The translations under genes and the position numbers were made by a program. Positions 8,943 through 63,274 of a DNA stretch of 64,000 nucleotides are shown here, piece after piece. The notes below the pieces were generated by a model. It saw only the letters and a program-made list of their open reading frames with translations, had not been told where the DNA came from and did no database searches. The DNA comes from an uncultured Bacilli bacterium (GTDB lineage Bacteria; Bacillota_I; Bacilli_A; RF39; UBA660): contig CALVQR010000001.1 in the NCBI GenBank assembly GCA_944358265.1, positions 5,042-69,041 of the forward strand, given 5' to 3'. Every line of letters begins with the position of its first letter. The first letter of the stretch is position 1.

Positions 8943-9002
8943 TTCACCTCCTTTCTTTATATTTCCCACTTATCCACCCATTTTTTAATAAAAAAATTAA
9001 AA

Positions 9003-9030
9003 AAAAAAAGCACTTTAATCGTGCTAATAA
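9003..9030 (-). terminator. Rho-independent terminator after the 9032..9346 gene
   Basis: The reverse strand reads AGCACgattaaaGTGCT followed by a T11 run. Confidence 0.45.
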
Positions 9031-9031
9031 A

Positions 9032-20005: not shown

Positions 20006-20458
20006 TTACTTATGATATGATTCATTATTATTTATTTTATATGCCCTATATATTTGTTCTAGAAGCATAACTCTAAACATTTGATGAGTAAAAGTCATTT
20101 TAGAAAATGATAACTTATAATTACTTAACTCTTTTATGTCATTATGTAGCCCATATGACCCTCCAATTATAAAACATATATCACTATTATGAATAAAAAT
20201 ATTATTTAGTTTATTTGCAAACTGAGTACTAGATATAATATTTCCTTCTATTTCCATAGTTATTATATAATCTTTTTCAGAAATATGTTTTAAAATATTA
20301 TCTCTTTCTTTTTCTAAAATCTTAATAATATCATAATTCTCATCTGGAACTTCTATTATATTAATTTTAGTATATTTACTAAGTCTTTTTAAATATTCTT
20401 TAATTGCTTCATTCAAATATTTTTCTTTTATTTTTCCCACACATATTATTTTTATCAT
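20006..20458 (-). CDS. rlmH: 23S rRNA (pseudouridine1915-N3)-methyltransferase RlmH
   Basis: 150-aa SPOUT protein MIKIICVGKIKEKYL...FIIGGSYGL. Synteny with yycJ matches B. subtilis. Confidence 0.8.
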   Translation of the reverse strand: MIKIICVGKIKEKYLNEAIKEYLKRLSKYTKINIIEVPDENYDIIKILEKERDNILKHISEKDYIITMEIEGNIISSTQFANKLNNIFIHNSDICFIIGGSYGLHNDIKELSNYKLSFSKMTFTHQMFRVMLLEQIYRAYKINNNESYHK

Positions 20459-21222
20459 ACTTCAATTAACTCCGTTGCTTCATTTTGTCTTGCAACAGAA
20501 ACATTATTAAAATTTATGTTATTTTTTCTAGTAATTTCATTAAATGTTTCTATTACCTTTTCTTCAGTATTATTATGTTCACTTATATGAGCAAAAATAA
20601 TTCTTTTAGTATTATTTCCAATAAATTTACATAAATAATCACTTGCCTGTTTATTAGATAAGTGTCCTTTATCACTTATTACTCTTTGTTGTAAGTAATA
20701 AGGATAAGGTCCTTCTCTAAGCATTTTTACATCATGATTACTTTCAAGTATATATAAATTATTATTTGATAAAATATCATAATATCTACTATTTATATAA
20801 CCTGTATCAGTTATATATACCATTGATGAAGATTCATTCTTAATTATAAAACCTATTGAATCTTCTGCATCATGAGAAGTTTTTATAATATTAACTTCTA
20901 AATCCTCAATTTTTGTTTTTTTATCATAATATAATTCATATCTAAATGTTCCTACTTCTTTTATTAAAACATTTAACAGTTTCTCAGTAACATGTATAAT
21001 TGGGTTATATTTTTTTATAAAGACTTTTAAACCTTTAATATGATCCGCGTGGTTATGTGTTATTAATATATGAGTTATTTCATTAGGATTTATATCTAAT
21101 CCGTTTAGTGTTTTTTCAACATATGCACAAGTGGTTCCAATATCGATTAATAATTTTACTTTATCTGTGACAATTAGGCATGAATTTCCTTTACTGCCAC
21201 TTGATAATACGCACGTTTTCAT
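20455..21222 (-). CDS. MBL-fold metallo-hydrolase (YycJ/WalJ-like)
   Basis: HNHADHIKGL metal-binding motif. Adjacent to rlmH as in the walRK-yycHIJ neighbourhood. Confidence 0.75.
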   Translation of the reverse strand: MKTCVLSSGSKGNSCLIVTDKVKLLIDIGTTCAYVEKTLNGLDINPNEITHILITHNHADHIKGLKVFIKKYNPIIHVTEKLLNVLIKEVGTFRYELYYDKKTKIEDLEVNIIKTSHDAEDSIGFIIKNESSSMVYITDTGYINSRYYDILSNNNLYILESNHDVKMLREGPYPYYLQQRVISDKGHLSNKQASDYLCKFIGNNTKRIIFAHISEHNNTEEKVIETFNEITRKNNINFNNVSVARQNEATELIEV

Positions 21223-22728: not shown

Positions 22729-24069
22729 CTATACTTCTTCTTTACTATAATTCGCAAAAGTACTAGTATTCTTCTTAAACAATAATTCTATTGTAGCAGT
22801 CGGTCCATTACGATGTTTAGCCACAATAAATTCACTAATACTTATATTGCCATCCATTCTTGCTTCTTTATTATAATAATCATCTCTATAAAGGAATGCC
22901 ACTATATCTGCATCTTGTTCTATAGAACCAGATTCTCTTAAATCACTCATAAGAGGTCTTTTATCATCTCGTCCTTCAACAGCACGCGAAAGTTGTGCAA
23001 GAGCAACTACAGGAACACCAAGTTCTAAAGCCATTGTCTTTAATCCTCTTGATATTTCAGATACTTCCTGTTGTCTATTTCCAGCATATTTGTTACTTCC
23101 TGAAATAAGTTGAAGATAATCTATTAAAACAATGCCAAGTCCTTCCTTTGATGCTGCAAGTCGTCTACATTTACTTCTTATATCGCCTATACTAATACCA
23201 GGAGTATCATCAATATAAATATTAGTATCTGCTAGTTGACTTATTCCTTCACTAAGTTTTGCCCAATCATTATTATCAAGTTTCCCTGATCTTAGTTTAT
23301 TACCTTCTACTTGAGCAGTTGATGAAAACATACGCGTTACTAATTGTTCTGCATTCATTTCTAAGTTAAATATTGCAACTGCTTTACTTATAGTTTTTGC
23401 TATATTTGTTGCAACATTAAGAGCAAAAGCTGTTTTACCCATTGCAGGTCTTGCTGCTATTATTATAAGTTCATTTTCGTGTAGTCCACTTGTTAATTTG
23501 TCTATTTCATAAAAACCAGTTGCAAGCCCAGTAATTTCACCTTTTTGATTACATAATTTTTCCAAATTTTCTTGTGCTTTAAATACTACATCTTGTATTT
23601 TATGAAATTCAGAAGATTTTCTTGTCTTAACTACATTTAATATTTTCATCTCTGCACTATCTAATATTTCATTAGCATTACCATCTTCTAAATAGGCATC
23701 CTCTGCAATATCATTAGAAACACTAATTAATCTTCTAAGTATTGCTTTTTCATGAACTATATTTATATAGTAATCTATATTTGATGCACTTGGAACCGAA
23801 TTAATAACTTCAAGTAAATATTCTATATTTCCTATACTAGATAATGTTTTATTTTTTTCTAATTTATCAGTTACAATAGTAATATCTATTGGTTTTCCTT
23901 CCTCATTTAGTTCTGATAAAGCATCATATATTTTTGAATGTGATTCTAAATAAAAATCATCACGATTTAATTCATCACATATTTTTTGAAGTGCATACTT
24001 TGATAAAAAAGCTGATCCAAGCACTGATTGTTCTGCTTCTAAACTAAATGGCATATTTCTTTTATCCAT
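22729..24069 (-). CDS. dnaB: Replicative DNA helicase
   Basis: DnaB N-terminal domain plus RecA-like core with Walker A AARPAMGKT. Confidence 0.9.
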   Translation of the reverse strand: MDKRNMPFSLEAEQSVLGSAFLSKYALQKICDELNRDDFYLESHSKIYDALSELNEEGKPIDITIVTDKLEKNKTLSSIGNIEYLLEVINSVPSASNIDYYINIVHEKAILRRLISVSNDIAEDAYLEDGNANEILDSAEMKILNVVKTRKSSEFHKIQDVVFKAQENLEKLCNQKGEITGLATGFYEIDKLTSGLHENELIIIAARPAMGKTAFALNVATNIAKTISKAVAIFNLEMNAEQLVTRMFSSTAQVEGNKLRSGKLDNNDWAKLSEGISQLADTNIYIDDTPGISIGDIRSKCRRLAASKEGLGIVLIDYLQLISGSNKYAGNRQQEVSEISRGLKTMALELGVPVVALAQLSRAVEGRDDKRPLMSDLRESGSIEQDADIVAFLYRDDYYNKEARMDGNISISEFIVAKHRNGPTATIELLFKKNTSTFANYSKEEV

Positions 24070-42708: not shown

Positions 42709-43239
42709 TTAATTCATGTATTTATCTATAGTTATTACCTTATTTTTTTTAAGACTTTCTTTAACGTCTATAATTCTTTGATTAGAAGATCCTCTGAATT
42801 TTAATTTAATATTCTTATTTTCTAGTTCAAATTTGCCATCTACTATAACATCTATATATGATATTAATTCTTTTGTTTCATCCCATTTTTGACACATATC
42901 ATCTAAAATATCTTTATCAAAAGTATATCCAGAAAAACACCATATACTTTTTTCAGGCATTTCTTTTTTTATTCTTCTTATCAAAGGCAGTATTCCTTTT
43001 TGATTCACATACTCAAAAGGTTCCCCACCTAAAATAGTAATTCCGTCAATATGAGCTGGTTTTAATAATTCAATTATATAATCTTCATCTTCTTTAGTGA
43101 ACTCTTTACCATATTTAAAATCCCATGCCTCTTCATTAAAGCATCCTTTGCAATGATGTGTACATCCACTTACAAACAAAGATATTCTTACCCCTGGACC
43201 ATTAGCGACATCTACTTTTTTTATATCTGCGAAATACAT
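42709..43239 (-). CDS. nrdG: Anaerobic ribonucleoside-triphosphate reductase activating protein
   Basis: Radical-SAM cluster CTHHCKGCFN. Immediately downstream of nrdD. Confidence 0.85.
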   Translation of the reverse strand: MYFADIKKVDVANGPGVRISLFVSGCTHHCKGCFNEEAWDFKYGKEFTKEDEDYIIELLKPAHIDGITILGGEPFEYVNQKGILPLIRRIKKEMPEKSIWCFSGYTFDKDILDDMCQKWDETKELISYIDVIVDGKFELENKNIKLKFRGSSNQRIIDVKESLKKNKVITIDKYMN

Positions 43240-45365
43240 TATAGATGAGTTACCCTTGCTTTAATTTCTTTTGTTTTTCCAACATTCCAGAAGTTTTCAC
43301 CTAAATACCCACATGTTCTTCTTGTAACATTCATCTTTGAATGATCTTTATTTCCACAATTTGGACACTCCCATTCGTTATCTTCGTTTATTATTATTTC
43401 GCCATCAAAACCGCATACATGACAATAATCTGATTTTGTATTAAATTCTGCATATTGAATATTTTCATAAATAAATTTAATTAATTCTTCTAATGCTTTA
43501 AGATTCTTTTCCATATTAGGAATTTCAACATATGAAATACATCCGCCTGATGATATTGGTTTAAATTGACTTTCAAATTTTAATTTGTCGAATGCATCAA
43601 TTTTTTCTCTAACATCAACATGATATGAATTAGTATAATAACCTTTATCGGTAACATCTTTAATGCTTCCAAATTTTTCTTTATCAATTCTTGCAAATCT
43701 ATAACATAAGCTTTCTGCTGGAGTTCCATATAATGCAAACCCAAGACCTGTTTCTTTTTTCCATGTATCACATGCTTTTCTTAAATATTTCATTAACTTA
43801 AGAGCAAATTTTTCTCCTTCTTCAGTAGTATGAGAAACGCCTTTTACAAGTTTAGTTGTCTCATATATACCTATATATCCAAGAGATAATGTTGAATATC
43901 CGCCTTTTAATAATTTATCTATTTTTTCTCCTTTTTCAAGTCTTGCGATTGCCCCATATTGCCAGTGTACTGGAGATATATCAGAAGTTATACCAAGAAG
44001 TGCATGATGTCTACACATAAGTGCTTCTTTACATAATTCCAATCTTTCATCTAACAATTTAAAGAATTTTTCTTCATTTCCCTCAGACAAAATACCAATT
44101 TGAGGTAAATTAATTGATACAACACCTTGATTGAATCTGCCTTCCCATTTATAATCTCCTTTTTCATCTTTCCATGGAGATAAGAAACTTCTGCATCCCA
44201 TTGGACTAAATACATTTCCTTCATATATTTCTTTCATTTTTTTTGCTGAAATATAATCAGGATACATTCTTTTTGCAGAACATTTACAAGCAAGTTTTGT
44301 TAAATAATCATATTTACCACCTTTTAAACAATTGTTTTCATCCAAGACATATACAAGTTTAGGAAAAGCTGGCGTAACATATACACCTTTTTCATTTTTT
44401 ATTCCTTGTAATCTTTGTTTTAATATTTCTTCTATAATCATTGCATTTTCTTCTATATATGGATCGTTATCATCTAAGCGTAAGAATAATGTTACAAAAG
44501 GAGATTGTCCGTTTGTAGTCATCAAAGTATTAATTTGATATTGAATAGTTTGAACTCCTGAAGACAATTCATCTTTCAATCTATCTTTTGCTAAGTCTTC
44601 TATTTGCTTTTTAGAAAATTCTTTCCCATGTTTTTCTGTTATTTTCTTTACAAATTTTTCATAACTTTTTCTTAAATATTTACCTAAATGTCTCATATCA
44701 ACAGATTGTCCACCATATTGATTAGATGCCACTGCGGCAATTATTTGTGTAGTAACAGTGCATGCTACTTGAAATGATTTTGGACTTTCTATTAATTTTC
44801 CATTCATAACTGTTCCATTATCAAGCATATCCGAAATATTTATTAAACAACAGTTAAATATTGGTTGTACAAAATAATCCATATCATGAAAGTGTAATAT
44901 TCCCTCATCATGTGCTTTTGATATTTTTTCTGGCAACAAAATTCTTCTTGTTAAATCTCTTGATACTTCTCCAGCAATATAATCTCTTTGTGTAGAAGCA
45001 TAGACTGTATTTTTATTAGAATTTTCTTCTGCCAATTCTTTGTTTTCATTTCTTATTAATCTTAAAATTGATTCATCAGTTGTATTTGCTTTTCTTATCA
45101 ATGCTCTATTATATCTATAAACAATATATTCTTTTGCTAAAACAAATTTTTTATATTCCATTAATTTTTTCTCAATTTCATCTTGAATATCCTCAACTAA
45201 CATCCTTTTCTTTTTCATGTCTTCTATATGTTTAATAATATTCTCTATTTGTTTATCTGATACTTTCTCTTTTGCTTCTACTTCAGCGTTAGCTTTCTCA
45301 ATTGCTACTTTAATTTTATTTCTGTCATAATCTACTATTTTTCCATCTCTCTTAATTACTTTCAT
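43239..45365 (-). CDS. nrdD: Anaerobic ribonucleoside-triphosphate reductase
   Basis: ATP-cone N-terminus (MKVIKRDGKIVDYDRNKIKVAIEKA), a C-terminal Zn ribbon and the glycyl-radical motif RTCGYLG. Confidence 0.9.
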   Translation of the reverse strand: MKVIKRDGKIVDYDRNKIKVAIEKANAEVEAKEKVSDKQIENIIKHIEDMKKKRMLVEDIQDEIEKKLMEYKKFVLAKEYIVYRYNRALIRKANTTDESILRLIRNENKELAEENSNKNTVYASTQRDYIAGEVSRDLTRRILLPEKISKAHDEGILHFHDMDYFVQPIFNCCLINISDMLDNGTVMNGKLIESPKSFQVACTVTTQIIAAVASNQYGGQSVDMRHLGKYLRKSYEKFVKKITEKHGKEFSKKQIEDLAKDRLKDELSSGVQTIQYQINTLMTTNGQSPFVTLFLRLDDNDPYIEENAMIIEEILKQRLQGIKNEKGVYVTPAFPKLVYVLDENNCLKGGKYDYLTKLACKCSAKRMYPDYISAKKMKEIYEGNVFSPMGCRSFLSPWKDEKGDYKWEGRFNQGVVSINLPQIGILSEGNEEKFFKLLDERLELCKEALMCRHHALLGITSDISPVHWQYGAIARLEKGEKIDKLLKGGYSTLSLGYIGIYETTKLVKGVSHTTEEGEKFALKLMKYLRKACDTWKKETGLGFALYGTPAESLCYRFARIDKEKFGSIKDVTDKGYYTNSYHVDVREKIDAFDKLKFESQFKPISSGGCISYVEIPNMEKNLKALEELIKFIYENIQYAEFNTKSDYCHVCGFDGEIIINEDNEWECPNCGNKDHSKMNVTRRTCGYLGENFWNVGKTKEIKARVTHL

Positions 45366-48499: not shown

Positions 48500-49438
48500 T
48501 TATATGTAAAAACTAGTTTCATCAATAAATTGATAATCTGTTTTATATTTAATCTCTCTTACTAACTTAAATAATGCATTATCTTTTTCTTTTGCTTCAA
48601 GCATTATATCCAAATTTATATTATACTTTTTTACTTTTTCTAAGAACAAAATAAAGTCATCACATACTATATAATCATTATGAGATCTATAATCTTTTTT
48701 TGTTTTATTTTTTGGTGATGAAAAATGTACCTTTGGTCTTATATTTTTCCATGTATTAAATATATCTATTAAAATATTATCTATATCTTTACAAGGATTA
48801 CAAACTTGATGATGATAATCTAAAACAAACGGTATATTTAGTTTTTTACATATTTTAAGCACATCATCTGGATTATATATTTTATCGTCATTTTCAAGTG
48901 CAATTGCATTTTGTATATTTTTCGGTAATTTTTTAAAATTATTTATAAATCTACTAATTGACTTTTCTTTACCAAATGTACTACTACCTACATGAAGAAC
49001 TATTATTGGATTTTTAATTTTAAAAGCTTTTAATATATTAATATGATAATCTAATATTCTAAATGTATTTTCTAGCACTTCTTTATTTACACTATTAAGT
49101 ACACAAAACTGATCCGGGTGTACATCTATCCTCATTTTGCTTTTTTCTATTAATTTTGATATTTCTTCATAATATTTTTTATATCTTTCTATATATTCAA
49201 AATCTACATTTTTGTGAGTAGCTAAAGGAATCAATTTTGACGTTAATCTATAAAAATGAATATTGTTTTTAACATTATAAATTAATATTTTTTCTAAAGC
49301 ATCGAAATTAGATTTTATCATTTCATCAAGTTTTTTATAATCATTATTTTTAGAAAAATTAGTATATGTTAATGTGCTTGATGAAGTAATATTATTTAAA
49401 GTTTTGCTAATAGCAACATAACCTAGTCTTATTATCAT
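48500..49438 (-). CDS. uvsE: UV damage endonuclease UvsE/UvdE
   Basis: IRLGYVAIS...LTSKLIPLATH...MRIDVHPDQF...LHVGS...ALENDDKIY...PFVLDYHH...PKVHFSSPK...DIMLEAKEKD aligns block for block with the UvdE family. Start moved to MIIRLGYV behind a GGTGA RBS. Confidence 0.8.
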   Translation of the reverse strand: MIIRLGYVAISKTLNNITSSSTLTYTNFSKNNDYKKLDEMIKSNFDALEKILIYNVKNNIHFYRLTSKLIPLATHKNVDFEYIERYKKYYEEISKLIEKSKMRIDVHPDQFCVLNSVNKEVLENTFRILDYHINILKAFKIKNPIIVLHVGSSTFGKEKSISRFINNFKKLPKNIQNAIALENDDKIYNPDDVLKICKKLNIPFVLDYHHQVCNPCKDIDNILIDIFNTWKNIRPKVHFSSPKNKTKKDYRSHNDYIVCDDFILFLEKVKKYNINLDIMLEAKEKDNALFKLVREIKYKTDYQFIDETSFYI

Positions 49439-49681
49439 ATTATCACCATTTATTATTATGTAAAAAAAATAAAAAGTTATAATTGTTTTATAAATTCTTA
49501 CATTTTTAAACATTTATAACTTTTTATATTATCTTATAATAAATATATATATTTTAATAATTTAAAATTTTTTACTTTTCTTAAATAAGTTATTCCTTTT
49601 ATATTTATTTTCATAGCCAAGATTAAATTTATATTTTTTTGAGAGTATCTTCAATTAAATCATTACTACTTATGTATTTTT

Positions 49682-50167
49682 TTATCTTAATTTATCAACT
49701 AATCTTTCTGCAGAGTTATCTAATTCATTTAAAGTAGTATTTTTAATTACAAAATCATAATTATAGTTTTCAACACTAGCATCAGAATAATTAGTTGTAA
49801 TTAAATCTAAGCCTTCTCTTTTAACCAACAAAGTTTTGGCATTAAACTTATTTACTGCACGACTTATTTCTTCTGGTTCTCTTATGTGTATAAACATAAT
49901 CTCATCATTAGATTTTTCAAATTTTTCCACAGCATTTTTAATACTATTAAACGACATATCATTATACTCTGTAGTAAGTTTTTTTAAATCACTTAAAAAT
50001 TTGCGATCTTTATCTGTTTTAGTCCCAGACCACCCTATTAACTTTGCTACTTCCTTTACCTTATCCACAGAAGAAAAATTATATACTTTTGCGTATTTAG
50101 AAACATATTCTACAAAAGTATCTTTACCGCTTCCACCGGTACCATTAATTATTATTATCTCTTTCAC
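49682..50167 (-). CDS. P-loop nucleotide/nucleoside kinase-like protein (dNMP kinase-like)
   Basis: Walker A IINGTGGSGKDTF in a 161-aa single-domain protein. Confidence 0.45.
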   Translation of the reverse strand: MKEIIIINGTGGSGKDTFVEYVSKYAKVYNFSSVDKVKEVAKLIGWSGTKTDKDRKFLSDLKKLTTEYNDMSFNSIKNAVEKFEKSNDEIMFIHIREPEEISRAVNKFNAKTLLVKREGLDLITTNYSDASVENYNYDFVIKNTTLNELDNSAERLVDKLR

Positions 50168-50642
50168 TATAAATTCACCCTCACACTCTATTTTATTTCT
50201 TTCATTTTTTGTATTATTATACTACAATCTATAAAATTTTAAATCAAAATCTTTTAATATAATACAAATAATACTATGAAACTCAAATTAAAGAAAAAGA
50301 GTCAATCGTAAACTCTTTCTTTATTACGTATAAATTTTAAAAAATTATTATTAAACATAATATTTAATACAAAAATATACAAAAATTCTTAATTTTTAAT
50401 TTTAGACAAATATAATTTATTAGGCATATAACATAAAATATAAATTTTTAATACCAATCATGTTTTTCATTTCTATCTAAAGCATTAATTTTATTCACTT
50501 CATTATTTATTATACCATTGTATAAAAACATTTTTAAATCTTGCATTTTGAATTGAATTTATTGTTTCAATTACACTAACATCTTTATTATTACTAACTA
50601 CAACTGCAAATTCTCTATTATTCATTCTATTTGTCCTACTAA

Positions 50643-51182
50643 CTAAAATATTTCAACCAATTTTGCAGGATATATTTCATATAATCCAAAATTTTCAACA
50701 ACTAATTCTAGCTCTTTGAAATCTTTTTCTAATATATTTTTCATTTTAATTATTTTTTCATAGTTTTTATCTATATGAATAGTTATATGAAAAGTGAAAT
50801 TATCTGGATTATATCTCTCACTAGGGCATAAATTATAAATCTCTCCTTGTAATTTTTCTAATTCTATATTTTTTTCTAACTCAAAATATAAACAATAACT
50901 ATTTTCTTTTCCCTTCATAATATTTAAACCTATAACTTTTATCTTTAATTTAGAAAACTTTATTTGCTTTAACTTTAAAATTATATTTTCTTCATCAGCA
51001 ATATTCCAAGCACACATGGTAAAATGAATTGGTAATGTATCTACTTCTTCACGATTATCAACATTTTTACCAAAAGGAACTTTACATATATTTTTATTTT
51101 CGCCTAATTTATTTATTCTTTCATTAATCTTAATTGTTGAATTTTTATCAAAATGTGATATTAATGTTATTCTTTCATTCAT
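50643..51182 (-). CDS. 2H phosphoesterase superfamily protein (LigT/2',5'-RNA ligase-like cyclic phosphodiesterase)
   Basis: Two HxTx motifs about 80 aa apart: LPIHFTMCAW and FHITIHID. Confidence 0.6.
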   Translation of the reverse strand: MNERITLISHFDKNSTIKINERINKLGENKNICKVPFGKNVDNREEVDTLPIHFTMCAWNIADEENIILKLKQIKFSKLKIKVIGLNIMKGKENSYCLYFELEKNIELEKLQGEIYNLCPSERYNPDNFTFHITIHIDKNYEKIIKMKNILEKDFKELELVVENFGLYEIYPAKLVEIF

Positions 51183-53311: not shown

Positions 53312-54235
53312 TTAACCATCTATAGTAACGTGTGATAGTTCTAATCCATATAATTCAATAGTAATTAAATGTTCGTCCAATTCGTTATTTAAGTAGGTTA
53401 GCTCGCCACAATTAACTTTACTAACATAAATAGTTGGCTTTCCTATTTTTTCAATAATTTCATCTCTTGTATGATTTTTAACATACCATTCATCCTTTTT
53501 GAATTTTTCAAATAGATGATTTATTACTTCATATTTATTTTTAAAATAATATTCTATTATTTGATCAGCATAATCAGTAAGTTCTTCTTTAACTTCGTCA
53601 GCTGTAATAATGACTTTTAATCCTTTATACTTATATTCAAATCCATTTTTTGTTTTATAGATTGAATCATCATATAATTCTTTTATAAAAGTATTCCAAT
53701 CATCAGTAATTACATCAAAAGTATCTGTTTCATGATTATAAATTACTATTTTATTTGTTCCTCTTTCAAAACATAAAGTATCACCAAATTCTAATTCTGC
53801 AAAAGGTACAATTTTGTTTTTTAATTCTGAATCAAAACTTTGAAATTTTAGAATATAAGTTTTACTATTAGGATCCATAGAATAGAAATATCTAACTAAT
53901 TTTTCCGTTCCATTTGATAATCCTAAAATATTTTTTTCAGGTTTTAAAGTTGAATTATTTAACAAGTATTTTTTATAATCTTCTACAAATGTGTAATTAA
54001 TTTTTTTTTCAACATTGTTTATATATTGTAATATTTCAGAGTCTAACTTTTTTGTTTTGTTATCAATACTTTTCAAAATACTTTCCACTTCTTCATTTGT
54101 TACTTTTAATTCTTTTAATTTATCTTGATCCTTATTAGATAAAGCATCAATTATTTGTTTTGTTCTATCATTTTCCATTTTTCTCTCTCCTTTATTTAAC
54201 ATGTTTACCACCATTTGCCAATAATATACTTTCAT
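53312..54235 (-). CDS. SUKH (SMI1/KNR4) family immunity-like protein with N- and C-terminal extensions
   Basis: INYTFVEDYKKYLLNNSTL (LPxdYxxFL...NG-like) and IVPFAELEFGDTLCFERGTNKIVIYNHETDTFDVITDDWNTFIKELY match the SUKH-1 core. Confidence 0.5.
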   Translation of the reverse strand: MKVYYWQMVVNMLNKGERKMENDRTKQIIDALSNKDQDKLKELKVTNEEVESILKSIDNKTKKLDSEILQYINNVEKKINYTFVEDYKKYLLNNSTLKPEKNILGLSNGTEKLVRYFYSMDPNSKTYILKFQSFDSELKNKIVPFAELEFGDTLCFERGTNKIVIYNHETDTFDVITDDWNTFIKELYDDSIYKTKNGFEYKYKGLKVIITADEVKEELTDYADQIIEYYFKNKYEVINHLFEKFKKDEWYVKNHTRDEIIEKIGKPTIYVSKVNCGELTYLNNELDEHLITIELYGLELSHVTIDG

Positions 54236-54246
54236 TATTCTTTACC

Positions 54247-55815
54247 CTATATTCCTTTTCTTGAAATATTATTATAGATTTCATCACTTTTATTAATGTC
54301 ATTTACATAATCATAACTACCTCTTACCATTTCATATTTACTATATATTTTTTCAATTAAAGGCAATGCAATACTAAAATCAATATCATTATTATCTAAA
54401 TTAATTATATAATCTACAACTTTACCTTTTTCACATCTCAACTCATCAATATCTTTTAATTCCATTATTTGAAAAATTGTTGGTTCTTTATCAGACCATT
54501 TAGTCAAAGATATAGTTAAACCAGCATTTTGAATTTCTTTTCTTATTCTATCAACTAAATCAATATCTTCTATATCTATAAAAGAATTCATGATTATATC
54601 AATACGTCTATAAATTTCACTACCATCAATGTTATCAATTCCTTTTCCATTATTAGCAATTAATTCATTTAATATATCAATTTGTTCTAAAAAATGATTA
54701 AAATCTCTATAATAAATCTCTATTTCATTACATATTTGACTAAGTTTATCCATTCTTCCATTTTGAATTCCACTATTAATAAGTGTATACTTACTTATGA
54801 AAGCTTCTGTAATTGCTTCTCTCAATCCTCCAGTGTTGTATGCATCATTATATTTATCAAATAAATCATTTTTATAGTAATCCGATATTTTAGTATTACT
54901 AGGTTTAATTGACTCTAGGTAATCAATTGCACTTTTCTTTTTTATTTCAAAATCAATTTGTTGATCTGTTGCTATTGTACGCATAGAACTTTTATATGAA
55001 ATATCTTTTTTTGATGGTTTAATCTTTTTCTGTTTTATTAAATCAATAAACATTCTTAATGAATTAATATCACTCATTCTTTTTAATCTTTCAATATCAA
55101 ATGAAAGTAAATTTAAAAATTGATTCCCAGTATCTTGGATTTTTACGGTATTATTTTGAATTAACAAATCAAGTTTTTTTTGCAAATCTTCCGCAGTACA
55201 TGGAGAACTATATTCTACTAAAAATTTTTCCATTTCTTCATAAGTTCCAAAGTCCATAAACCAAGGTCTTCCACGAAAAGGGGTACCTATTTTTATATAA
55301 AACAAGTCATTTTCTGCATATTCTTTAAATTTTGTCATTACAAAAGGTCTTATTGGATTTGAGAGTTCTGTAAACCATTCTTGCAATTTATGCTCTATTT
55401 TATATTGAATTGGATTAACAGAATAATTACATTCGCTCATCTTTATTTCATCGTTTTTATCACCAAATGATTCTCTATCATTTTTTTGTAAATCTAATAT
55501 TGGGGTTTTTTTATAAATAAACCAATTCCTTAACGTACGATATTCATATAATAATGTTTTAAAATTTGAAATAATTTTAGGTTGACTAAAAAGATGTGTT
55601 GCCTGATCTGCTTGTGGCTGTGTTTGAAATTCACCTATAAAATGATCAGTATATTTTGCATTTTTAAGCCAATTTTGTAATTTTTCAATTTTTTTCTCCA
55701 TTTTTTTATCTAATTGTTCAATGGTGAAATTATTGAATTCAACTCCAAAAATATCAAAATCTTGTGCCATATATCTTATATCTATTTTTCTATTGCCTAA
55801 TAGATTTGTTTGCAT
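54247..55815 (-). CDS. Large hypothetical protein (522 aa), island component
   Basis: ORF track; no motif recognised by eye. Separated from the SUKH gene by 11 nt, suggesting an operon. Confidence 0.45.
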   Translation of the reverse strand: MQTNLLGNRKIDIRYMAQDFDIFGVEFNNFTIEQLDKKMEKKIEKLQNWLKNAKYTDHFIGEFQTQPQADQATHLFSQPKIISNFKTLLYEYRTLRNWFIYKKTPILDLQKNDRESFGDKNDEIKMSECNYSVNPIQYKIEHKLQEWFTELSNPIRPFVMTKFKEYAENDLFYIKIGTPFRGRPWFMDFGTYEEMEKFLVEYSSPCTAEDLQKKLDLLIQNNTVKIQDTGNQFLNLLSFDIERLKRMSDINSLRMFIDLIKQKKIKPSKKDISYKSSMRTIATDQQIDFEIKKKSAIDYLESIKPSNTKISDYYKNDLFDKYNDAYNTGGLREAITEAFISKYTLINSGIQNGRMDKLSQICNEIEIYYRDFNHFLEQIDILNELIANNGKGIDNIDGSEIYRRIDIIMNSFIDIEDIDLVDRIRKEIQNAGLTISLTKWSDKEPTIFQIMELKDIDELRCEKGKVVDYIINLDNNDIDFSIALPLIEKIYSKYEMVRGSYDYVNDINKSDEIYNNISRKGI

Positions 55816-55914
55816 TTAATTCACCTCATTTTTTTGTTCTATTATTTCCCATTTTTTTCTCTTTTCTATATAATGTAATTATTTAAGATTAGTATAGTTT
55901 TTTTTTAAGATAAA

Positions 55915-57168
55915 TTACATCATCCTTTTTCCACTACGTTCAACATTTTCAGCTATTTCAGTTTCTTCTGTGATGTCATCAAACAAATTATCATCAATAC
56001 CAATTTCACTCATTCTTCTTTTATAAATCATTTCACGGAATTGCTGTTCTACAATTTGCTGTCTTTCTGGCTCTAATTCATCATAGTCATATTTTTCTTT
56101 AATCATTTCCCATTCTTGATCTTCTCTCGTTTTATTTTCATTAATAGAAGTATTTACTTGTGCCTGTTCTTTTTTATATTGATTATCTTTCTTTCGACGA
56201 AGAAATACCATAGACATAAGACCATCTAATCTTTTTTCTTTCTTATCAAACTTACTTGTTACATAAGGAACTCCTTCTTGCTTTTTTCTTTCTTCAAATG
56301 CAACTTTATCTTGCATATTTTTTATTTTATCATTTTTTAAGATTTCAATAATTGAATCAATATTTATTGCTTGTCCTTTTAAACCATTTATGTATCTTAT
56401 TGTTTGAAAATCTATATCTGATTCATTTTGTTTAAATGTCTTTGCCACTAAATATCTTAACATACCATCTACATTGCTTGTAATTAAACTATCTTCATTA
56501 ATATACTTTAAACCATTTTTGCCATAAATAGATTTTAAAATATTTAATTCATCTCTACCAATAGCATTTCTTTTCATTGGCAACATTCTTTCCATAGCAT
56601 TAGCAAATATTTCTAGTCTATATTTACGCATTTCTAATTTTTGTTTTACTTGTTCTGAAATATCATCTATTTTTGATAAATCAATATCCTCTGCATCATG
56701 TAAAATATCCGCACCAATTCTAACTCGATATAATGTATAATTATCAGCAGGAACAAAATCCGTTATCCATTCGTCACCTTGAAATCCATTATTATAATGC
56801 CCCCTCAATTGATCTGAAATAAAAGGTTTTCTTACATTTAATCCATCTGTATTAATTTGATATATTACTGCAACAGATGGTATTATTATTCGTTCGTTAT
56901 AAATTGATAGATTATTATGAATCGGTATTCCATCATGGTGTAAATCACCATATGCTGATGTTACCATACTCAAATTGTCAGACATATAAACACCATATTC
57001 ATTTCCATCAGTAACAGTCTTTCTACCATACTGATCAATAATAGGAGCATAATTAACTTTTAAATCAACACCAGAAAATTTAAAAGATTGTAACTTATTA
57101 TAATCAATTTTTATCCCTCTATATAATACACTTGGTTTATTTTCCATATTTACCTCCTTTATCTTCAT
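55915..57168 (-). CDS. Hypothetical protein (417 aa), island component
   Basis: ORF track. The N-terminal half has weak R / S-T-S-like patterning (LYRGIKI...MVTSAY) but no convincing catalytic signature. Its stop is 8 nt from the start of the next gene. Confidence 0.45.
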   Translation of the reverse strand: MKIKEVNMENKPSVLYRGIKIDYNKLQSFKFSGVDLKVNYAPIIDQYGRKTVTDGNEYGVYMSDNLSMVTSAYGDLHHDGIPIHNNLSIYNERIIIPSVAVIYQINTDGLNVRKPFISDQLRGHYNNGFQGDEWITDFVPADNYTLYRVRIGADILHDAEDIDLSKIDDISEQVKQKLEMRKYRLEIFANAMERMLPMKRNAIGRDELNILKSIYGKNGLKYINEDSLITSNVDGMLRYLVAKTFKQNESDIDFQTIRYINGLKGQAINIDSIIEILKNDKIKNMQDKVAFEERKKQEGVPYVTSKFDKKEKRLDGLMSMVFLRRKKDNQYKKEQAQVNTSINENKTREDQEWEMIKEKYDYDELEPERQQIVEQQFREMIYKRRMSEIGIDDNLFDDITEETEIAENVERSGKRMM

Positions 57169-57175
57169 TTAAAAT

Positions 57176-57790
57176 TTAATTAATACAATCTATATCAATA
57201 ACTTTGTTATCCTTAAATATAATTTTATACACGCCTGGACTTTTTGGCTTTTCATAAACAATTACTTTTTTGTTATATTTTATATAAATCTTCTCATTAA
57301 CAAATTTAAAATCACAATGATTTTGTAAGAATGATAAAAGCATTATTCCATGAATAACTACAATTGATTTTTCATTATTTTGCAAAATATCTTCTATGAA
57401 ACTATCAAATCTCAAGTCTATATCATTCAAAGATTCTCCATTATTAACTTTAAAATTTTTATCTTTAAATGAATGCACTGTAAAATCACTAGGAAGTTCA
57501 TTTAGAAATTTTATTCCAAATTCTCTTTCATTTATTCTATCATCTAGTTTTATTTTTGTTTTATTTGATTCACTTAAATATTTAGCAGTTGCTATAGCAC
57601 GAAAAGAATTACTTGAATATATATTTTTAATATTCTTTAATTCTTCTATCTCACATAGTTTTTGAGCTTTTTCTTCTCCTTGAACAGATAATATCATATT
57701 TTTATTATATTCATACCATGACATATTTTCTTGATTATCATACTCAACAAATGGACCAGAATGTCTTATTAAATAAACTATTTTTTCCAA
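57176..57790 (-). CDS. Histidine phosphatase superfamily (phosphoglycerate-mutase-like branch) protein
   Basis: N-terminal RHG-type motif VYLIRHSGP and a downstream catalytic His context SIVVIHGIMLLSF. Confidence 0.6.
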   Translation of the reverse strand: MEKIVYLIRHSGPFVEYDNQENMSWYEYNKNMILSVQGEEKAQKLCEIEELKNIKNIYSSNSFRAIATAKYLSESNKTKIKLDDRINEREFGIKFLNELPSDFTVHSFKDKNFKVNNGESLNDIDLRFDSFIEDILQNNEKSIVVIHGIMLLSFLQNHCDFKFVNEKIYIKYNKKVIVYEKPKSPGVYKIIFKDNKVIDIDCIN

Positions 57791-57995
57791 TTAGAACACC
57801 TCATATCTTTATTAAATTATAGCACAACACATAAATATATTCTATATCTAAGGCTGAACTAACATAGTGATTTACAAAGAATGTCTTAATTATTAAATCA
57901 TATCTGTAATATACAATTGTATTCTGGTCTTGCTTTTTCTCAACACGTAGATACTCATTAATTTTATATTTAACTTTTTTGTTATAAATATTTTG

Positions 57996-59735
57996 TTATA
58001 AATATATTGATATTGGATATTTTTTAAAAGACTCTATAGTTTGATAATCAATATCTTTTATTAAGATACTGGCTTCAACTTTACTATCCATTAATAAACT
58101 GCAACACAACTGTATTTCTACATTAGAATTATTAGTTTTAATGTTCATTAGTTCTTTTATTTCTTCATCTGTTAGCTTGTTTTCACGCTTTAAAATCTGA
58201 CACAAGTTTATATAATATATATCATGCGAATCAGAATCTTTTTCTAGTAAAATATTTATCAAAAACTTTGCGTATGATAATAAATTTGAATTTTTATTAT
58301 AATCATATGCTTTTATTATTTCCAATACTTGCGCATTTAGCAGTTCATATTCACCATCTCTTAAACTATAATCTGTAAAGATTTCTTTCATTTCATCAAA
58401 ATTTATATCATCTGAAAGGTATGCCTCAGAATTAAGAATAAGATATAAGTTATTAGTATTAATTTCTTTTTCGTTGTTCTGATATTTAAAAACATACTTT
58501 TTATAATCTATATTATTCCATAAGCTTTCTATATAAAAACTTCCTTTTTCGTTTTTGTGAGCCATTATAGATAGTCTTAAATCTCGTATTTCTATAGAAC
58601 CAATCAAGCTTATCTCACTTTTTAAATTTAGAGGAATCTTATCTTCTATTGCTGTAAGCCAAATATTGAGTTTATTGAAATCTTTATCTTGCCACTCATC
58701 AAAATTTAAATCTTTATTAACATTATGTTTTAACAATATTTGTTTTAATTCTTCATATTGAGATAACAATGTTTTAAATTTAGAGAATTCTTTTTCGGGA
58801 AACTCAACTACAAATTCTTTCTCATTAATCAAAAAACCTTTATTTATAAAAGCCTTATTTATAAAATGAAGAGCCTTTATACGTTCTAATAAACTTCCAC
58901 GAATTTTTATGTTAAAAGTATGTTTCGTTAAATTAAAATTGAAACTATTCCCAAAATATATTATTTGTTCATTTAATTTTGTTTCTAATTTTATGCCTTT
59001 ATAAATAATCTCTTTCTCTGTATCTGAAATAACAGCGTTCAAGTTTTCAATTATATTATATATTATCCCAAAACTTGCACCAATAGGGTATTCATGTTCG
59101 TCAAAAGTATAAATAAATTTACTCATTCCAACTAATTTTTGTGGATTGAAATTTTGCATATCCTTATCCCATACACTAAATCTTGCTACTTTACCATTTT
59201 CTACAGTTAGATTTTCTTGATTGAACATATTTTGATTCATCTTTTTTTGTATTTCCTTATCTATTTGAAAATTTCTACATATACTTTCTAAATGCGAGGC
59301 ATCTTTTATTTCTTTAATTTTCACTCTAATAGTATCAGATGAATCATTATTCTTTAAATAATTATTTATGTGGTATGGTAACAAAGATGAAAAATATATT
59401 TTAAAATCATCACTTTCTCGTTTAAATAAACACATAAGTAATAATGTTCCATTTTTTTTTAAAAAATTTTGCATATCTATAACTGATAAATCAAAATAAC
59501 TTTTGTCTGTTAATTTCTTGTTATTTGTGGTTCTTCCTTTGACTTGTACATCAATTGAAAACTGAAAATTTTCCTTTTTATCAATATTTCCATGATAAAA
59601 ATCAATAGTACCATCCCAAGAAATAGATTTATCATTGCTTTGAATATGTCCATCAGCACTTTCTATTTTATCAATTAGTTCATTAATTTTAGTAATAGCT
59701 CTTTGTTCTGTTTTTTTACTACTAATATTTCCCAT
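57996..59735 (-). CDS. DUF4365-like (restriction-endonuclease-fold) N-terminal domain protein with large uncharacterised alpha-rich C-terminal region
   Basis: SWDGTIDFYHGNIDKKENFQFSIDVQVKGRTTNN...LLLMCLFKRESDDFKIYF reproduces the D-G-iD ... vQvK ... hydrophobic core ... yW/yF pattern of DUF4365 / PD-(D/E)xK-like modules. Confidence 0.5.
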   Translation of the reverse strand: MGNISSKKTEQRAITKINELIDKIESADGHIQSNDKSISWDGTIDFYHGNIDKKENFQFSIDVQVKGRTTNNKKLTDKSYFDLSVIDMQNFLKKNGTLLLMCLFKRESDDFKIYFSSLLPYHINNYLKNNDSSDTIRVKIKEIKDASHLESICRNFQIDKEIQKKMNQNMFNQENLTVENGKVARFSVWDKDMQNFNPQKLVGMSKFIYTFDEHEYPIGASFGIIYNIIENLNAVISDTEKEIIYKGIKLETKLNEQIIYFGNSFNFNLTKHTFNIKIRGSLLERIKALHFINKAFINKGFLINEKEFVVEFPEKEFSKFKTLLSQYEELKQILLKHNVNKDLNFDEWQDKDFNKLNIWLTAIEDKIPLNLKSEISLIGSIEIRDLRLSIMAHKNEKGSFYIESLWNNIDYKKYVFKYQNNEKEINTNNLYLILNSEAYLSDDINFDEMKEIFTDYSLRDGEYELLNAQVLEIIKAYDYNKNSNLLSYAKFLINILLEKDSDSHDIYYINLCQILKRENKLTDEEIKELMNIKTNNSNVEIQLCCSLLMDSKVEASILIKDIDYQTIESFKKYPISIYL

Positions 59736-60142
59736 TTACATCATCTCCTAACAAGATATTTAATATCTATATTATATCACGAAAAAAGTCGCATTTTTTT
59801 GCAACTTATATTTCTAAATCAAAGTCATCATGATCTTTATGTTTATTATCTTCTTTACTCCAATTATAATCTTCTTTTATGTCATCTATGGTTTTATCAC
59901 TAAATATCCTATGTTCGTATAAGCCTTTTGAAAATTTTTAATAATCTTCACGTTCTTTGTCTTTGACGAATATTTTATGTTTGATAAAATTGATTAATCT
60001 ATCAAATAAATCTTTAAAGTAATCTACTAGTTCTTCAAGATGCTTATTATCTTTTTTTAACTCTTTAATCTCTTTATTTTCGATATTTTTTGATAAAGTA
60101 TCTACTTTAAGAGATATTGCTTCATTGTTTTCGGTTAGTATT

Positions 60143-60608
60143 TTAATTTTTTATTTTCCAATTTTCTAAAGTATTATTTATGTGCTTTAAATTGTATGTT
60201 CCATTAAGAATTGCATTCTTAACTGCATATCTTGTTATTTCGTTATCTTCCCATTTGGAAATGTATTTATATTCAGTTGGACTTAACAGTCTTCCAAATT
60301 CTTGCTCTATATAACTATAAATATTAATATTATCCATTATTCTTATATTCTTCTATTGTGGTTATTTCGTTGGTTGAAATTAAGTGTTTTATTGCTGTTC
60401 TTATCTCTTGCTCTGACAAACCTAATTCTTTAGATAATTGTTTTCTACTTGTTACAAAACTACCTCTTGAAGCTTCTATCCCCCTAAACAAACCATCTTC
60501 CCAATTTGCTTTTAATATGCAATGAATGAATACTGCTTTTGTATTTACATCTGTATACCCTTCCCAATTGAGAAATTTATTATGAATTTTTATCCAACTT
60601 TCATTCAT
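60143..60608 (-). pseudogene. Phage replisome-organiser / DnaD-domain gene split by a frameshift
   Basis: 60330..60608 encodes a wHTH N-part (FVTSRKQLSKELGLSEQEIRTAIKHL). 60143..60337 encodes a DnaD C-domain (YIEQEFGRLLSPTEYKYISKWEDN...AVKNAILNG...NTLENW). The two ORFs overlap by 8 nt in different frames. Confidence 0.55.
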
Positions 60609-60857
60609 TGTCTTTTTCCTTTAATAAAATTTGAATTTTGTTCGTTCTTAAGCTATAATTAATTAATATTTTATTTTTAAAATACTAATTTATTTATTGA
60701 ATTATCTACTTTCAATTGTGGTTGGTTGTGTAGATAATTCTTTTTTTCGTCTATTTGTTATGCATTTATACACATTAATATAAATCAAAAAACACCTGTT
60801 ATTACTAATAATATATATCCTAGCATCTCTTTTCTCACTTTTTGATCCGCATCCTTT

Positions 60858-61025
60858 CTATAATCCCAAAACATGTTTTTCAAAATATTGTATTGGTATT
60901 CTTTTCCCTATGATAATTACATTAGGATTTTCTTTTTTCATTTGATTTTGTAGTTTTTCTATTATTCGATAACATTTTGTTTCCCCATATCCTGTAATTT
61001 TCATTATGTCTTTTACTCCATACAT
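60858..61025 (-). CDS. Small HTH_17/excisionase-family DNA-binding protein
   Basis: MYGVKDIMKITGYGETKCYRIIEKLQNQ...VIIIGKRIPIQYFEKHV behind a GGAGGG RBS. Coordinates approximate. Confidence 0.45.
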   Translation of the reverse strand: MYGVKDIMKITGYGETKCYRIIEKLQNQMKKENPNVIIIGKRIPIQYFEKHVLGL

Positions 61026-61110
61026 TTTTTATCCCTCCTCATAAAATTTTGTCCAGTCAAAATTAAATGTTCCCCACTAGTCTTTTTGTTGTGTAAACAC
61101 TACATTCCCC

Positions 61111-61270
61111 TTAAAAAAAATAACGCCTATATCACAATTTAGGAATTTTTCAAGTTTTAACATTGTTTTACTTTCAATATTATCTAAAGAATTAGTTTCA
61201 ATCATAGATATTGTTGATCTAGATACCCCAGATTTTATTGAAAGAGCTTCTTGGCTTAAACCTTGTTTTT
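61111..61270 (-). CDS. Cro/XRE-family HTH protein lacking a canonical start codon (possible pseudogene)
   Basis: Reverse frame encodes ...NNRIKEFRQKQGLSQEALSIKSGVSRSTISMIETNSLDNIESKTMLKLEKFLNCDIGVIFF. There is no in-frame ATG/GTG/TTG between the upstream stop and the HTH, despite a GGAGG RBS nearby. Confidence 0.4.
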
Positions 61271-61386
61271 GTCTAAATTCTTTGATTCTATTATTCCTTT
61301 TTACCTCCTATCTCTATGTTAATCATACACTACACTTTTTTACTTTGTCAACAGTAAACAACAATTTCTTTATTTTTTCCTTGAAT

Positions 61387-61410
61387 AATTGTAAAGTATG
61401 TATTACAATT
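61387..61410. promoter_or_regulatory. Candidate operator: perfect 8-bp inverted repeat AATTGTAA-N8-TTACAATT between divergent Cro-like and CI-like genes
   Basis: Lies about 20 bp upstream of the CI-like gene start (61432) within TTGAAT...TACAAT promoter-like hexamers. Confidence 0.4.
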
Positions 61411-61431
61411 GTCGTAAAGGAGATGTTTTGT

Positions 61432-62121
61432 ATGAATTACATAGGTAGCTTTATAAAAAATTATAGAGGTGATATGTCTCTAAGAGAATTTGCTGATAAA
61501 TGTGGAATTAGTCATACACATTTAGATAGTATCGAAAAAGGATTCGACCCTAGGACTGGAAAACCTGTAAGAGTAACGGTTGATACATTAAAAAAAATAG
61601 CATCTGCTATGAATATGTCTGTTAATGATTTGTTAATTCAATCTGGTGACGTTAAATTAGAAGAATTAAATTTTGACAATGCAGAACTGGTTTCGCCAAT
61701 AAAAGAAAGTATAAAAATACCTGTATTAGGTAAAATTCCTGCAGGAATGCCTTTTGAAGCAATAGAAGACCAATATACAATTGATTTTGAAGAAATACCC
61801 TATTCTTGGTTAAAAGGAGGAAATCAATTTTTTGCTTTAAAGTTAGATGGTGACAGTATGGAACCAGAATATCACAACAATGATATAGTTATTTTTAAGA
61901 AAACAAACACATGTAAATCTGGTCAAGATTGTTGTATAAAAATAAATGGGTATGATGCTACATTTAAAAGAGTAAAAAGACAAGAAAATGGAATTATGAT
62001 TATTCCACTTAACGAAAATAATTCAACAGGTTTTACTGCTACTTTTTATACAAACGAAGATATAATAAATAAACCAATAGAAATTATTGGAGTTGTCAAA
62101 CAAATAAGAAGAAATATTTAA
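61432..62121 (+). CDS. CI/LexA-like repressor: XRE HTH plus S24 peptidase domain
   Basis: N-terminal HTH (MSLREFADKCGISHTHLDSIEKG), C-terminal S24 motif LKLDGDSMEPEYHNNDIVIFKK and Lys in TFKRVKR. Start trimmed to MNYIGSF behind an AAGGAG RBS. Confidence 0.75.
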   Translation: MNYIGSFIKNYRGDMSLREFADKCGISHTHLDSIEKGFDPRTGKPVRVTVDTLKKIASAMNMSVNDLLIQSGDVKLEELNFDNAELVSPIKESIKIPVLGKIPAGMPFEAIEDQYTIDFEEIPYSWLKGGNQFFALKLDGDSMEPEYHNNDIVIFKKTNTCKSGQDCCIKINGYDATFKRVKRQENGIMIIPLNENNSTGFTATFYTNEDIINKPIEIIGVVKQIRRNI

Positions 62122-62794: not shown

Positions 62795-63274
62795 ATGTCT
62801 AAAATTAGTAATGTATTAACAATGCTTGAATATTTAAGTACTGGAAAAAAATATAGCATTTCTGAATTATCTGAAAAATTGGAAGTAAGTCCTAGAATGA
62901 TTAGAGTGTACAAAGATGAGATTGAAAAAGCAGGCATTTATATAGATACGATTAAAGGTCCATATGGTGGATATGTTTTAAATCAAAATATAAATGTTCC
63001 TAAGAGATTTATAACTCCTAATACTATTGATATTAAAAATAAGGAATTTTATAATTTAATTAATAGAGCAATTAAAGAAAAAAGAAAATGTTATATAGAA
63101 TATTATTCTAAAGATAAAAAAGAAATTTCTGTAAGAACTATTCATCCATATGATTTGATTTTACTTGGTTCAGAATGGGGAGTCGCAGCTTATTGTGAGA
63201 AAAAGCAGGAAATAAGACATTTTTATATAAATCGCATTAAAAATATAAAATTCCTAGAAAATTTTTATAACTGA
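62795..63274 (+). CDS. HTH-WYL domain transcriptional regulator
   Basis: N-terminal HTH (ISELSEKLEVSPRMIRVYKDEIEKAGIYI) and a C-terminal WYL-like block IHPYDLILLGSEWGVAAYCEKKQEIRHFYINRI. Confidence 0.6.
   Translation: MSKISNVLTMLEYLSTGKKYSISELSEKLEVSPRMIRVYKDEIEKAGIYIDTIKGPYGGYVLNQNINVPKRFITPNTIDIKNKEFYNLINRAIKEKRKCYIEYYSKDKKEISVRTIHPYDLILLGSEWGVAAYCEKKQEIRHFYINRIKNIKFLENFYN

Follow-up and report, generated by a model that had tools for sequence, protein, structure and literature searches.

In the papers searched, work on DUF4365, or on the DREN nuclease in defence, comes down to three systems, SPARDA, Divona and EAT16, besides incidental annotations. In SPARDA, a short prokaryotic Argonaute works with a DREN-APAZ protein. 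The DREN domain of SPARDA is inactive as an isolated monomer, and its non-specific cleavage of DNA requires the D2 tetramer that filament formation imposes (PMC12205087; bioRxiv 2025.04.08.647717). Catalytic residues have been located at E37/D41/Q62/K64 in the DREN domain of XauSPARDA (bioRxiv 2025.04.08.647717), at D41/Q60/K62 in that of NbaSPARDA (PMC12205087; bioRxiv 2023.06.08.544223) and at Q62/K64 in TmuRE (PMC10810196). Divona, a single-gene DUF4365 fusion from the chromosomal integron of Vibrio cholerae, protects this organism from phage when expressed (bioRxiv 10.1101/2024.07.02.601686). EAT16, a Photorhabdus toxin associated with an extracellular contractile injection system (eCIS), has catalytic residues D42/D46/Q66/K68, and this motif is needed for cytotoxicity (PMC11297309). 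The topology of DREN has also been likened to that of the resolvase Hjc (bioRxiv 2023.06.08.544223). Here we analyse a gene of this kind found in a 64,000-nucleotide stretch of DNA (the window) from an uncultured Bacilli bacterium (GenBank assembly GCA_944358265.1, contig CALVQR010000001.1, positions 5,042 to 69,041 of the forward strand). It codes for a protein of 579 residues which, we are slightly inclined to believe, is an uncharacterised, mobile, stand-alone single-gene defence nuclease, an Argonaute-independent member of the DREN (DUF4365) branch of PD-(D/E)xK nucleases.

Like the DREN-APAZ protein of SPARDA, the 579-residue protein has a DREN nuclease, a linker and a large regulatory region, and a role in defence is probable here too. 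By contrast with SPARDA, the region that follows the nuclease is not APAZ, the model of its middle domain finding no SPARDA match. No short Argonaute gene lies nearby, hence there is no guide-RNA-directed recognition of a target, and the SPARDA DREN domain is too distant in sequence to be matched directly by a profile. Divona resembles our protein in being the product of one gene, carried by a mobile cassette, with DUF4365 at its N-terminus and an unrelated domain at its C-terminus. However, the latter is crr6 (PF08847), which matches neither the window protein nor any of 68 aligned family members, whereas we find a beta/alpha domain followed by a helical bundle with no Pfam counterpart. Divona further belongs to a different phylum, and its integron cassette is promoterless while ours has a predicted promoter. 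EAT16, a two-domain protein, shares the N-terminal DUF4365 domain with its D..D..QxK motif, but it acts as an exported toxin tied to a contractile injection system, an apparatus absent from the vicinity of the present family, and its C-terminal part differs. Finally, the archaeal Holliday-junction resolvase Hjc and RecU-type resolvases display the same PD-(D/E)xK topology, and their tetrad, E(helix 1)-D-(E/Q)xK, is present in the 579-residue protein. These resolvases are single-domain dimers of about 120 to 200 residues, whereas this protein has 400 more conserved residues and the distribution of a mobile defence-island gene. What is known is the type of nuclease effector; what is new is the widespread, uncharacterised architecture of one gene in which it is found, where the middle domain has an apparently new fold.

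The open reading frame (ORF) is a real gene, not a chance ORF, because it has 95 full-length homologs and because its middle domain alone retrieves 858 representatives of clusters built at 50% identity. The 95 relatives, found among 5.8 billion proteins, are nearly all 574 to 595 residues long and align with 99-100% of the query; a second search, started from a broad alignment, gave the same 96 proteins, and for none of these 95 to 96 proteins does any source in the protein collection supply a name. The figure of 858 was obtained at E ≤ 1e-3 when 1.84 billion cluster representatives were searched exhaustively with HMMER, 476 remaining at E ≤ 1e-10. Among PHROGs v4 profiles, phrog_9827 matches end to end (residues 4-575 against profile positions 3-575 of 584, E 2.7e-49). 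This is the same family seen in prophages, as with protein EES90328 of Clostridium phage D-1873; it is annotated as of unknown function, so that the match gives the family a label but no explanation of what it does. The close relatives of the gene come from metagenome-assembled genomes (MAGs) of gut 'Bacilli', Tenericutes-like organisms, Erysipelotrichaceae and Clostridium. Conservation was followed in two alignments, one of 37 close members, the other of 68 members with identities as low as 20% (mean column identity 29%). The three-domain architecture is essentially fixed across the family: in the best 150 of the 858 matches, nearly all proteins have 570 to 610 residues, with the middle domain at about 175-455. 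Outliers are shortened copies that start within the nuclease domain, one protein with insertions and one, P0169, with an extra DUF1016_N domain. The possibility that other effectors had been placed on the middle and C-terminal module was rejected, the short outliers being truncated copies and P0169 merely gaining its DUF1016_N at the N-terminus.

Two further observations concern variants of the gene. In two Clostridium/Clostridia MAGs (L022 4007-5738 and L023 4549-6279) it is split into two ORFs, of 103 and 459 or 130 and 439 codons respectively. These are probably frameshifted pseudogenes or sequencing errors, and such splits fit the turnover expected for costly accessory genes. Separately, the 130-kb Clostridioides difficile phages LIBA2945 (L002 5001-6845) and LIBA6276 code for a 614-residue protein which has only its N-terminal 156 residues or so in common with the window protein, at 31% identity: the same nuclease module is joined there to a different C-terminal region.

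A sequence-only reading of the window had seen a DUF4365-like PD-(D/E)xK module at the N-terminus of the protein, quoting the peptides SWDGTIDFYHG, FSIDVQVKG and LLLMCLFKRESDDFKIYF, all of which occur in the translation. This assignment is upheld. The Pfam family PF14280 (DUF4365) matches 16 of the 37 close full-length members (best E 1.7e-7) and 29 of the 68 in the wider alignment (best E 4.2e-8), while the outlier P0169 scores 33.3 bits, above the curated cut-off of 24.3. Many of the homologs also carry precomputed PF14280 matches. An AlphaFold2 model built from the 37-sequence alignment (mean predicted local distance difference test score, pLDDT, 90.3; predicted template modelling score 0.73) gives the domain a helix at 6-22, strands at 27-31, 42-47, 57-70 and 78-84, a helix at 85-93, further strands and a last helix at 146-163, which together form the PD-(D/E)xK core. 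A Foldseek comparison of the model with the Protein Data Bank (PDB) ranks SPARDA DREN-APAZ chains at the top (9qcc, 9jsz, 9vx6 and 9qbp; E 1.9e-4 to 4e-3, probability 0.98-1.00, the best reaching 1.00); the compact matches cover about 155 columns of the nuclease core at a root-mean-square deviation of 5 Å. In the viral structure library BFVD only small Hjc/RecU-like nucleases match, among them a phage RecU resolvase. NCBIfam models gave no match for the window protein, and searches of PDB sequences with full-length, middle-domain and N-terminal profiles returned nothing meaningful. The family belongs to the DUF4365/DREN PD-(D/E)xK nucleases, of which the window protein is a divergent member.

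The residues that the same reading had proposed as catalytic, the aspartate and the QVK motif, are conserved among homologs. D41, G42, Q64 and K66 are invariant in the 68-sequence alignment, E10 is found in 62 of the 68 and position 35 is acidic (D or E) in 63, so that the motif goes beyond chance. The layout is that expected of the family, with acidic residues on the beta1-beta2 hairpin and QxK on beta3. D41, Q64 and K66 would occupy the positions of D41, Q62 and K64, experimentally essential in XauSPARDA; this correspondence, as that with EAT16, is drawn from position, secondary structure and fold match, not from a structural alignment. The active site of the nuclease looks intact, and a metal-dependent activity is predicted.

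Beyond the nuclease, the sequence-only reading had expected a large helical region, and this did not stand. After a linker of lower model confidence (around residues 171-180), residues 183-427 are modelled mostly as beta-strands, with four helices, and only the last domain, 446-579, is all-helical. Because the full model aligned over long stretches with DREN-APAZ chains, the middle domain had seemed possibly APAZ-like. When residues 176-445 were modelled alone (pLDDT 88.6) and submitted to Foldseek against the PDB, the best match had E 0.33 with a low probability, and no SPARDA or APAZ chain was among the matches listed; the APAZ hypothesis was therefore rejected. A profile search likewise found no PDB sequence relative of this domain. 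Judging from the model, the middle domain is not APAZ, has no solved relative by Foldseek and is apparently of a new fold. The C-terminal domain has weak Foldseek matches to tetratricopeptide repeat (TPR) proteins, namely the designed TPR 5fzq (E 0.36, probability 0.96) and that of YbgF (2xev; E 0.92, probability 0.77), while hmmscan found no Pfam TPR match in the window protein. Two of its residues, D478 and N510, are invariant in the 68-sequence alignment and two others, Q513 and R517, nearly so, a pattern suggestive of a functional surface.

The gene is a self-contained, horizontally mobile single-gene unit. In its two closest genomic relatives, blastn finds 94% nucleotide identity to the window only over 59897..57993 (L014) or 59776..57996 (L013), and the flanks are unrelated to those of the window. 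The hairpin that precedes the gene (-10.8 kcal/mol, z -2.2) is kept with it in L014 and in a further context, L036. An extended -10-like element, TGATATAAT, is kept in the window, L014 and L036, and takes the form TGTTATAAT in L034, while the sequence farther upstream diverges. We infer that this element is the gene's own promoter, moving with it. In L034 an 88%-identical copy (8001-9746) lies 93 bp 3' of the transfer-messenger RNA (tmRNA) gene ssrA (7554-7908), beside rpoA-rplQ; the tmRNA gene is a classic hotspot for the integration of islands. A further close copy adjoins HTH (helix-turn-helix) and RHS genes. Terminal repeats flanking the cassette were sought, with only low-complexity, AT-rich chance matches as a result, and no Rfam RNA element was found in 57000-61500. 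The survey of neighbourhoods covered 20 loci at first and then 59, which represent 30 lineages defined at 80% protein identity. Serine recombinases lie within 6 kb of the family gene in 8 of the 30 lineages, and Mob_Pre relaxases in 4.

Neither sample revealed a conserved partner: no neighbour family is broadly common, and at 21 of the 59 loci the gene has no ORF on its own strand within 150 bp of either end. Among annotated neighbours in 12 contexts, none has a Piwi or Argonaute Pfam domain. Defence genes come near in many forms, bearing out the sequence-only suggestion of a defence-island protein. A Pycsar nucleotide cyclase and its PycTM effector, with NUDIX and inositol-phosphatase genes (L007 1776-3672, L008 245-2141), share with the family member a single element bearing recombinase and relaxase genes. 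The neighbourhood of another relative has an ABC-type ATPase with a KAP NTPase, an MqsR toxin, a Panacea antitoxin and an EVE protein. A SEFIR-domain protein is coded near the family member of Clostridium phage D-1873, and an integrase and a NERD-domain gene adjoin the relative that has only the N-terminal domain in C. difficile phages. Against the PADLOC models, the 68 relatives gave only scattered weak matches, each for a single member.

Restriction-modification (R-M) systems are also found there, and these bring in the first rival explanation, that of a classical restriction endonuclease: either the nuclease half of an R-M system, or a solitary, modification-dependent (Type IV-like) enzyme whose middle and C-terminal domains read a sequence or a modified base in DNA directly, with no switch driven by infection sensing or oligomerisation. 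The nuclease is of the PD-(D/E)xK type with its D...QxK motif, and DUF4365 was earlier placed near the Mrr subfamily. A solitary gene would suit a Type IV enzyme, with the 400-residue extra region as a possible DNA-recognition module. Moreover, same-strand methyltransferase genes directly adjoin the family gene in several lineages: 5-methylcytosine (m5C) enzymes in L020 and L026/27/52, a DPPY-type enzyme in L048 and NPPF-type enzymes in L063/64/70. These neighbours, however, belong to three unrelated R-M types, which points to co-localisation in defence islands rather than to cognate pairing. One (L064 3167-5953) is a full-length homolog of MmeI (E 7.9e-177), a single-chain Type IIL enzyme that needs no separate nuclease. 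Another (L048 2006-6287) is a Type III Mod subunit (E 2e-49 to 6k0w, with a match to EcoP15I Mod as well), followed by an overlapping 771-residue ORF, a putative Res. A third (L026 9811-11961) is an m5C methyltransferase with its own overlapping 248-residue ORF and an ASCH-domain protein behind it. Pairing with a cognate methyltransferase was rejected as a general feature, and at least one of these systems demonstrably needs no contribution from the family gene. Only 3 of the 30 lineages have an m5C methyltransferase at 6 kb or less from the gene, and the annotated surroundings of the window gene have no methyltransferase within about 10 kb. Furthermore, the gene has reached new genomes unaccompanied, at 94% identity, a kind of transfer that is not viable for a sequence-specific enzyme lacking protection, and its middle domain resembled no solved DNA- or modified-base-binding domain in the Foldseek search of the PDB. 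We consider the restriction enzyme unlikely; it is nonetheless the most probable of the rivals, and its Type IV-like form is conceivable.

The sharpness of the cassette suggests another scenario, that of a selfish, free-standing homing-type endonuclease gene, its boundaries resulting from insertion promoted by the nuclease itself, with no benefit to the host. The 94%-identical segment indeed ends exactly at the ends of the gene, one distant family member matches the homing-endonuclease model of PADLOC (4.4e-5), and family members are found in phages (phrog_9827, D-1873). Tetramers of DREN are also reported to resemble the PD-(D/E)xK homing endonuclease I-Ssp6803I (PMC12205087; bioRxiv 2025.04.08.647717). 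Homing, however, needs a conserved target allele, and the insertion sites (tmRNA, rpoA-rplQ, recombinase-borne elements, a CI/Cro module) have no common homology. The gene has its own predicted promoter, and an intact ORF persists over some 858 clusters at 50% identity. Known PD-(D/E)xK homing enzymes are three to four times smaller than this protein, which has 400 conserved extra residues. Such an origin appears improbable to us. A toxin rather than an immune sensor, be it cargo of an injection system, a polymorphic toxin or half of a toxin-antitoxin pair, is very improbable. In its favour are the DUF4365 protein EAT16, verified as an eCIS-associated toxin that kills only with its D/D/Q/K motif (PMC11297309), the two large proteins and the SUKH-family, immunity-type gene downstream in the window, and the PT-HINT, RHS or Panacea-domain antitoxin genes near some relatives. 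Against it, the protein begins with the nuclease and has no domain for trafficking or secretion, whereas in polymorphic toxins the toxin domain stands at the C-terminus; no small immunity or antitoxin gene is conserved next to it across the 59 loci, and injection-system genes were seen in none of them.

A candidate anti-phage or anti-plasmid defence nuclease is the most likely role of the protein. It would operate as follows. A Hjc/DREN-like nuclease domain, predicted to be metal-dependent (E10, D35, D41, Q64-x-K66), is fused to a beta/alpha domain of 270 residues and a helical domain of 135. By analogy with SPARDA, these two probably replace the APAZ/Argonaute machinery and keep the nuclease off. 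They would respond to a sign of infection, whether a phage protein or a feature of nucleic acids; this response would lead to self-association, then to cleavage of the DNA of the invader and possibly of that of the host.

Several points weigh against the defence-nuclease reading. In hmmscan the window protein matches nothing in Pfam, PF14280 included, even at E ≤ 10, and the profile built from its N-terminal domain fails to pick up solved DREN sequences in the PDB. Because the protein stays below all Pfam thresholds and its profile misses those sequences, the link with DREN is transitive, through homologs, and structural. PADLOC-DB v2.0.0 yields 0 matches for the window protein, and the association with defence neighbourhoods is qualitative. 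The immediate neighbours in the window, a histidine phosphatase and DnaD-like fragments, are not recognisable defence genes. Among the family members inspected, none has the middle and C-terminal module with a different effector, so that the sensor-effector modularity typical of many defence proteins is absent. Lastly, activation through oligomerisation is pure analogy, and we would put less confidence in it than in the reading as a whole.

A bolder claim, which we advance tentatively and would not favour over its negation, is that this protein is the founding example of an Argonaute-independent DREN system, a one-protein immune sensor in which the new-fold and helical domains detect infection and assemble an active DREN oligomer. 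If this bolder claim is true, the effector of SPARDA was drawn from, or passed into, a far wider stock of stand-alone nucleases, spreading as promoter-bearing single-gene cassettes in gut Firmicutes. In the papers searched, mechanistic work deals with DREN nucleases only as Argonaute-controlled effectors, valued for collateral cleavage and diagnostics. A family of some 858 clusters under different, structurally novel control would be a second, independent way to silence a non-specific nuclease until it is needed. The defence repertoire of human-gut Firmicutes would gain a compact candidate made of one gene, and a new sensor fold would become available for study. The sharp single-gene mobility of the cassette, with its own predicted promoter, makes it easy to transplant and test.

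Table 1. Features of the nuclease gene, its product and the surrounding DNA (positions counted from the first nucleotide of the window)
Feature	Position	Strand	Basis
Complete coding sequence, 579 residues and stop codon, ATG start	57996..59735	minus	ORF list
Ribosome-binding site AGGAGA, 8 nt 5' of ATG	59744..59749	minus	sequence; kept in 4 of 4 aligned contexts
DUF4365/DREN-like PD-(D/E)xK nuclease domain, residues 1-165	59241..59735	minus	PF14280 matches in homologs, Foldseek, BFVD
Predicted active-site segment D35...D41-G42...Q64-V-K66	59538..59633	minus	conservation and SPARDA/EAT16 equivalents
Codon of E10, on helix 1	59706-59708	minus	conservation (62/68)
Codon of D35	59631-59633	minus	
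Codon of D41	59613-59615	minus	
Codon of Q64	59544-59546	minus	
Codon of K66	59538-59540	minus	
Family-specific middle domain, residues 178-445, mixed beta/alpha	58401..59204	minus	separate AlphaFold model, Foldseek, profile search
C-terminal all-helical domain, residues 446-579, weakly TPR-like	57999..58400	minus	model secondary structure, Foldseek, conservation
Horizontally moving single-gene cassette, gene and about 160 bp upstream	57993..59897	minus	blastn
Terminator-like hairpin closing the upstream unit, directly before the gene's predicted promoter	59786..59807	minus	terminator scan, RNA fold
Extended -10-like element	59771..59779	minus	read from sequence
CI-type HTH-S24 (LexA/CI-like) repressor	61282-62121	plus	
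parA (window 1-47000)	6363-7190		
parB (window 1-47000)	7211-8158		
dnaB (window 1-47000)	22729-24069		
nrdD (window 1-47000)	43239-45365		

The window is part of the chromosome of a low-GC (25%) Firmicute, not of a phage. PHROG matches to NrdD, DnaB and an M23 peptidase had suggested a large phage or phage-plasmid; this was rejected, as bacterial chromosomal genes are present: rpsF-ssb-rpsR-rplI-dnaB, ychF, parA/parB, an RlmH-type methylase gene, bacA, gerQ, a rubrerythrin gene, rmuC and sortase/SpaA pilin genes. The set was read from Pfam-annotated contigs that carry proteins identical to those of the window, and no capsid, portal or terminase match was found among the window ORFs scanned. 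Almost all the genes of the first 47,000 nucleotides lie on the minus strand, with a strongly negative GC skew of about -0.25. The change of its sign near 61 kb was considered as a replication origin and rejected: it coincides with a small group of plus-strand genes, beyond which the genes return to the minus strand.

A divergent switch of CI/Cro type occupies 60600-62121, and the GC skew flips there along with gene orientation. Facing the repressor, on the minus strand, are a Cro-like XRE HTH ORF, a 55-residue Xis-like HTH ORF and two DnaD-like ORFs (60608-60143), followed by the terminator-like hairpin, the nuclease gene and a histidine-phosphatase gene. No integrase was recognised near this module, so that it looks like a remnant or a satellite-type integrated element. 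The DnaD-like function is split (60143-60608, minus) between a 92-residue ORF, with a winged HTH and matches to DnaD-like PHROGs, and a 64-residue DnaB_2 ORF, with an 8-nucleotide overlap, ATGGATAA; short ORF fragments continue from there to the hairpin at 59807. The pair is possibly a decayed or frameshifted replication gene. Two genes past the repressor, an HTH_11 and WYL regulator is coded on the plus strand (62795-63274). Regulators with a WYL domain often govern operons for defence or for the response to DNA damage.

On the other side of the nuclease gene, a SUKH/SMI1-KNR4 family gene (53312-54235, minus) is preceded on the same strand by genes for proteins of 522 (54247-55815) and 417 residues (55915-57168) with no family match. 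Members of the SUKH/SMI1-KNR4 family are often immunity proteins, and the three genes (53312-57168) are possibly a toxin/immunity set. Farther away, 3' of dnaB and the M23 peptidase gene, a metallo-beta-lactamase-fold protein (20455-21222, minus) matches both the anti-Pycsar protein Apyc1 (PF23023) and Lactamase_B; it may be just a housekeeping hydrolase. Beside the island, a cluster of minus-strand genes for nucleic-acid repair or nucleotide metabolism at 48500-51182 codes for a UvdE-type endonuclease (48500-49513), a P-loop protein resembling deoxynucleoside monophosphate kinases (49682-50167) and a LigT/2H phosphoesterase (50643-51182).

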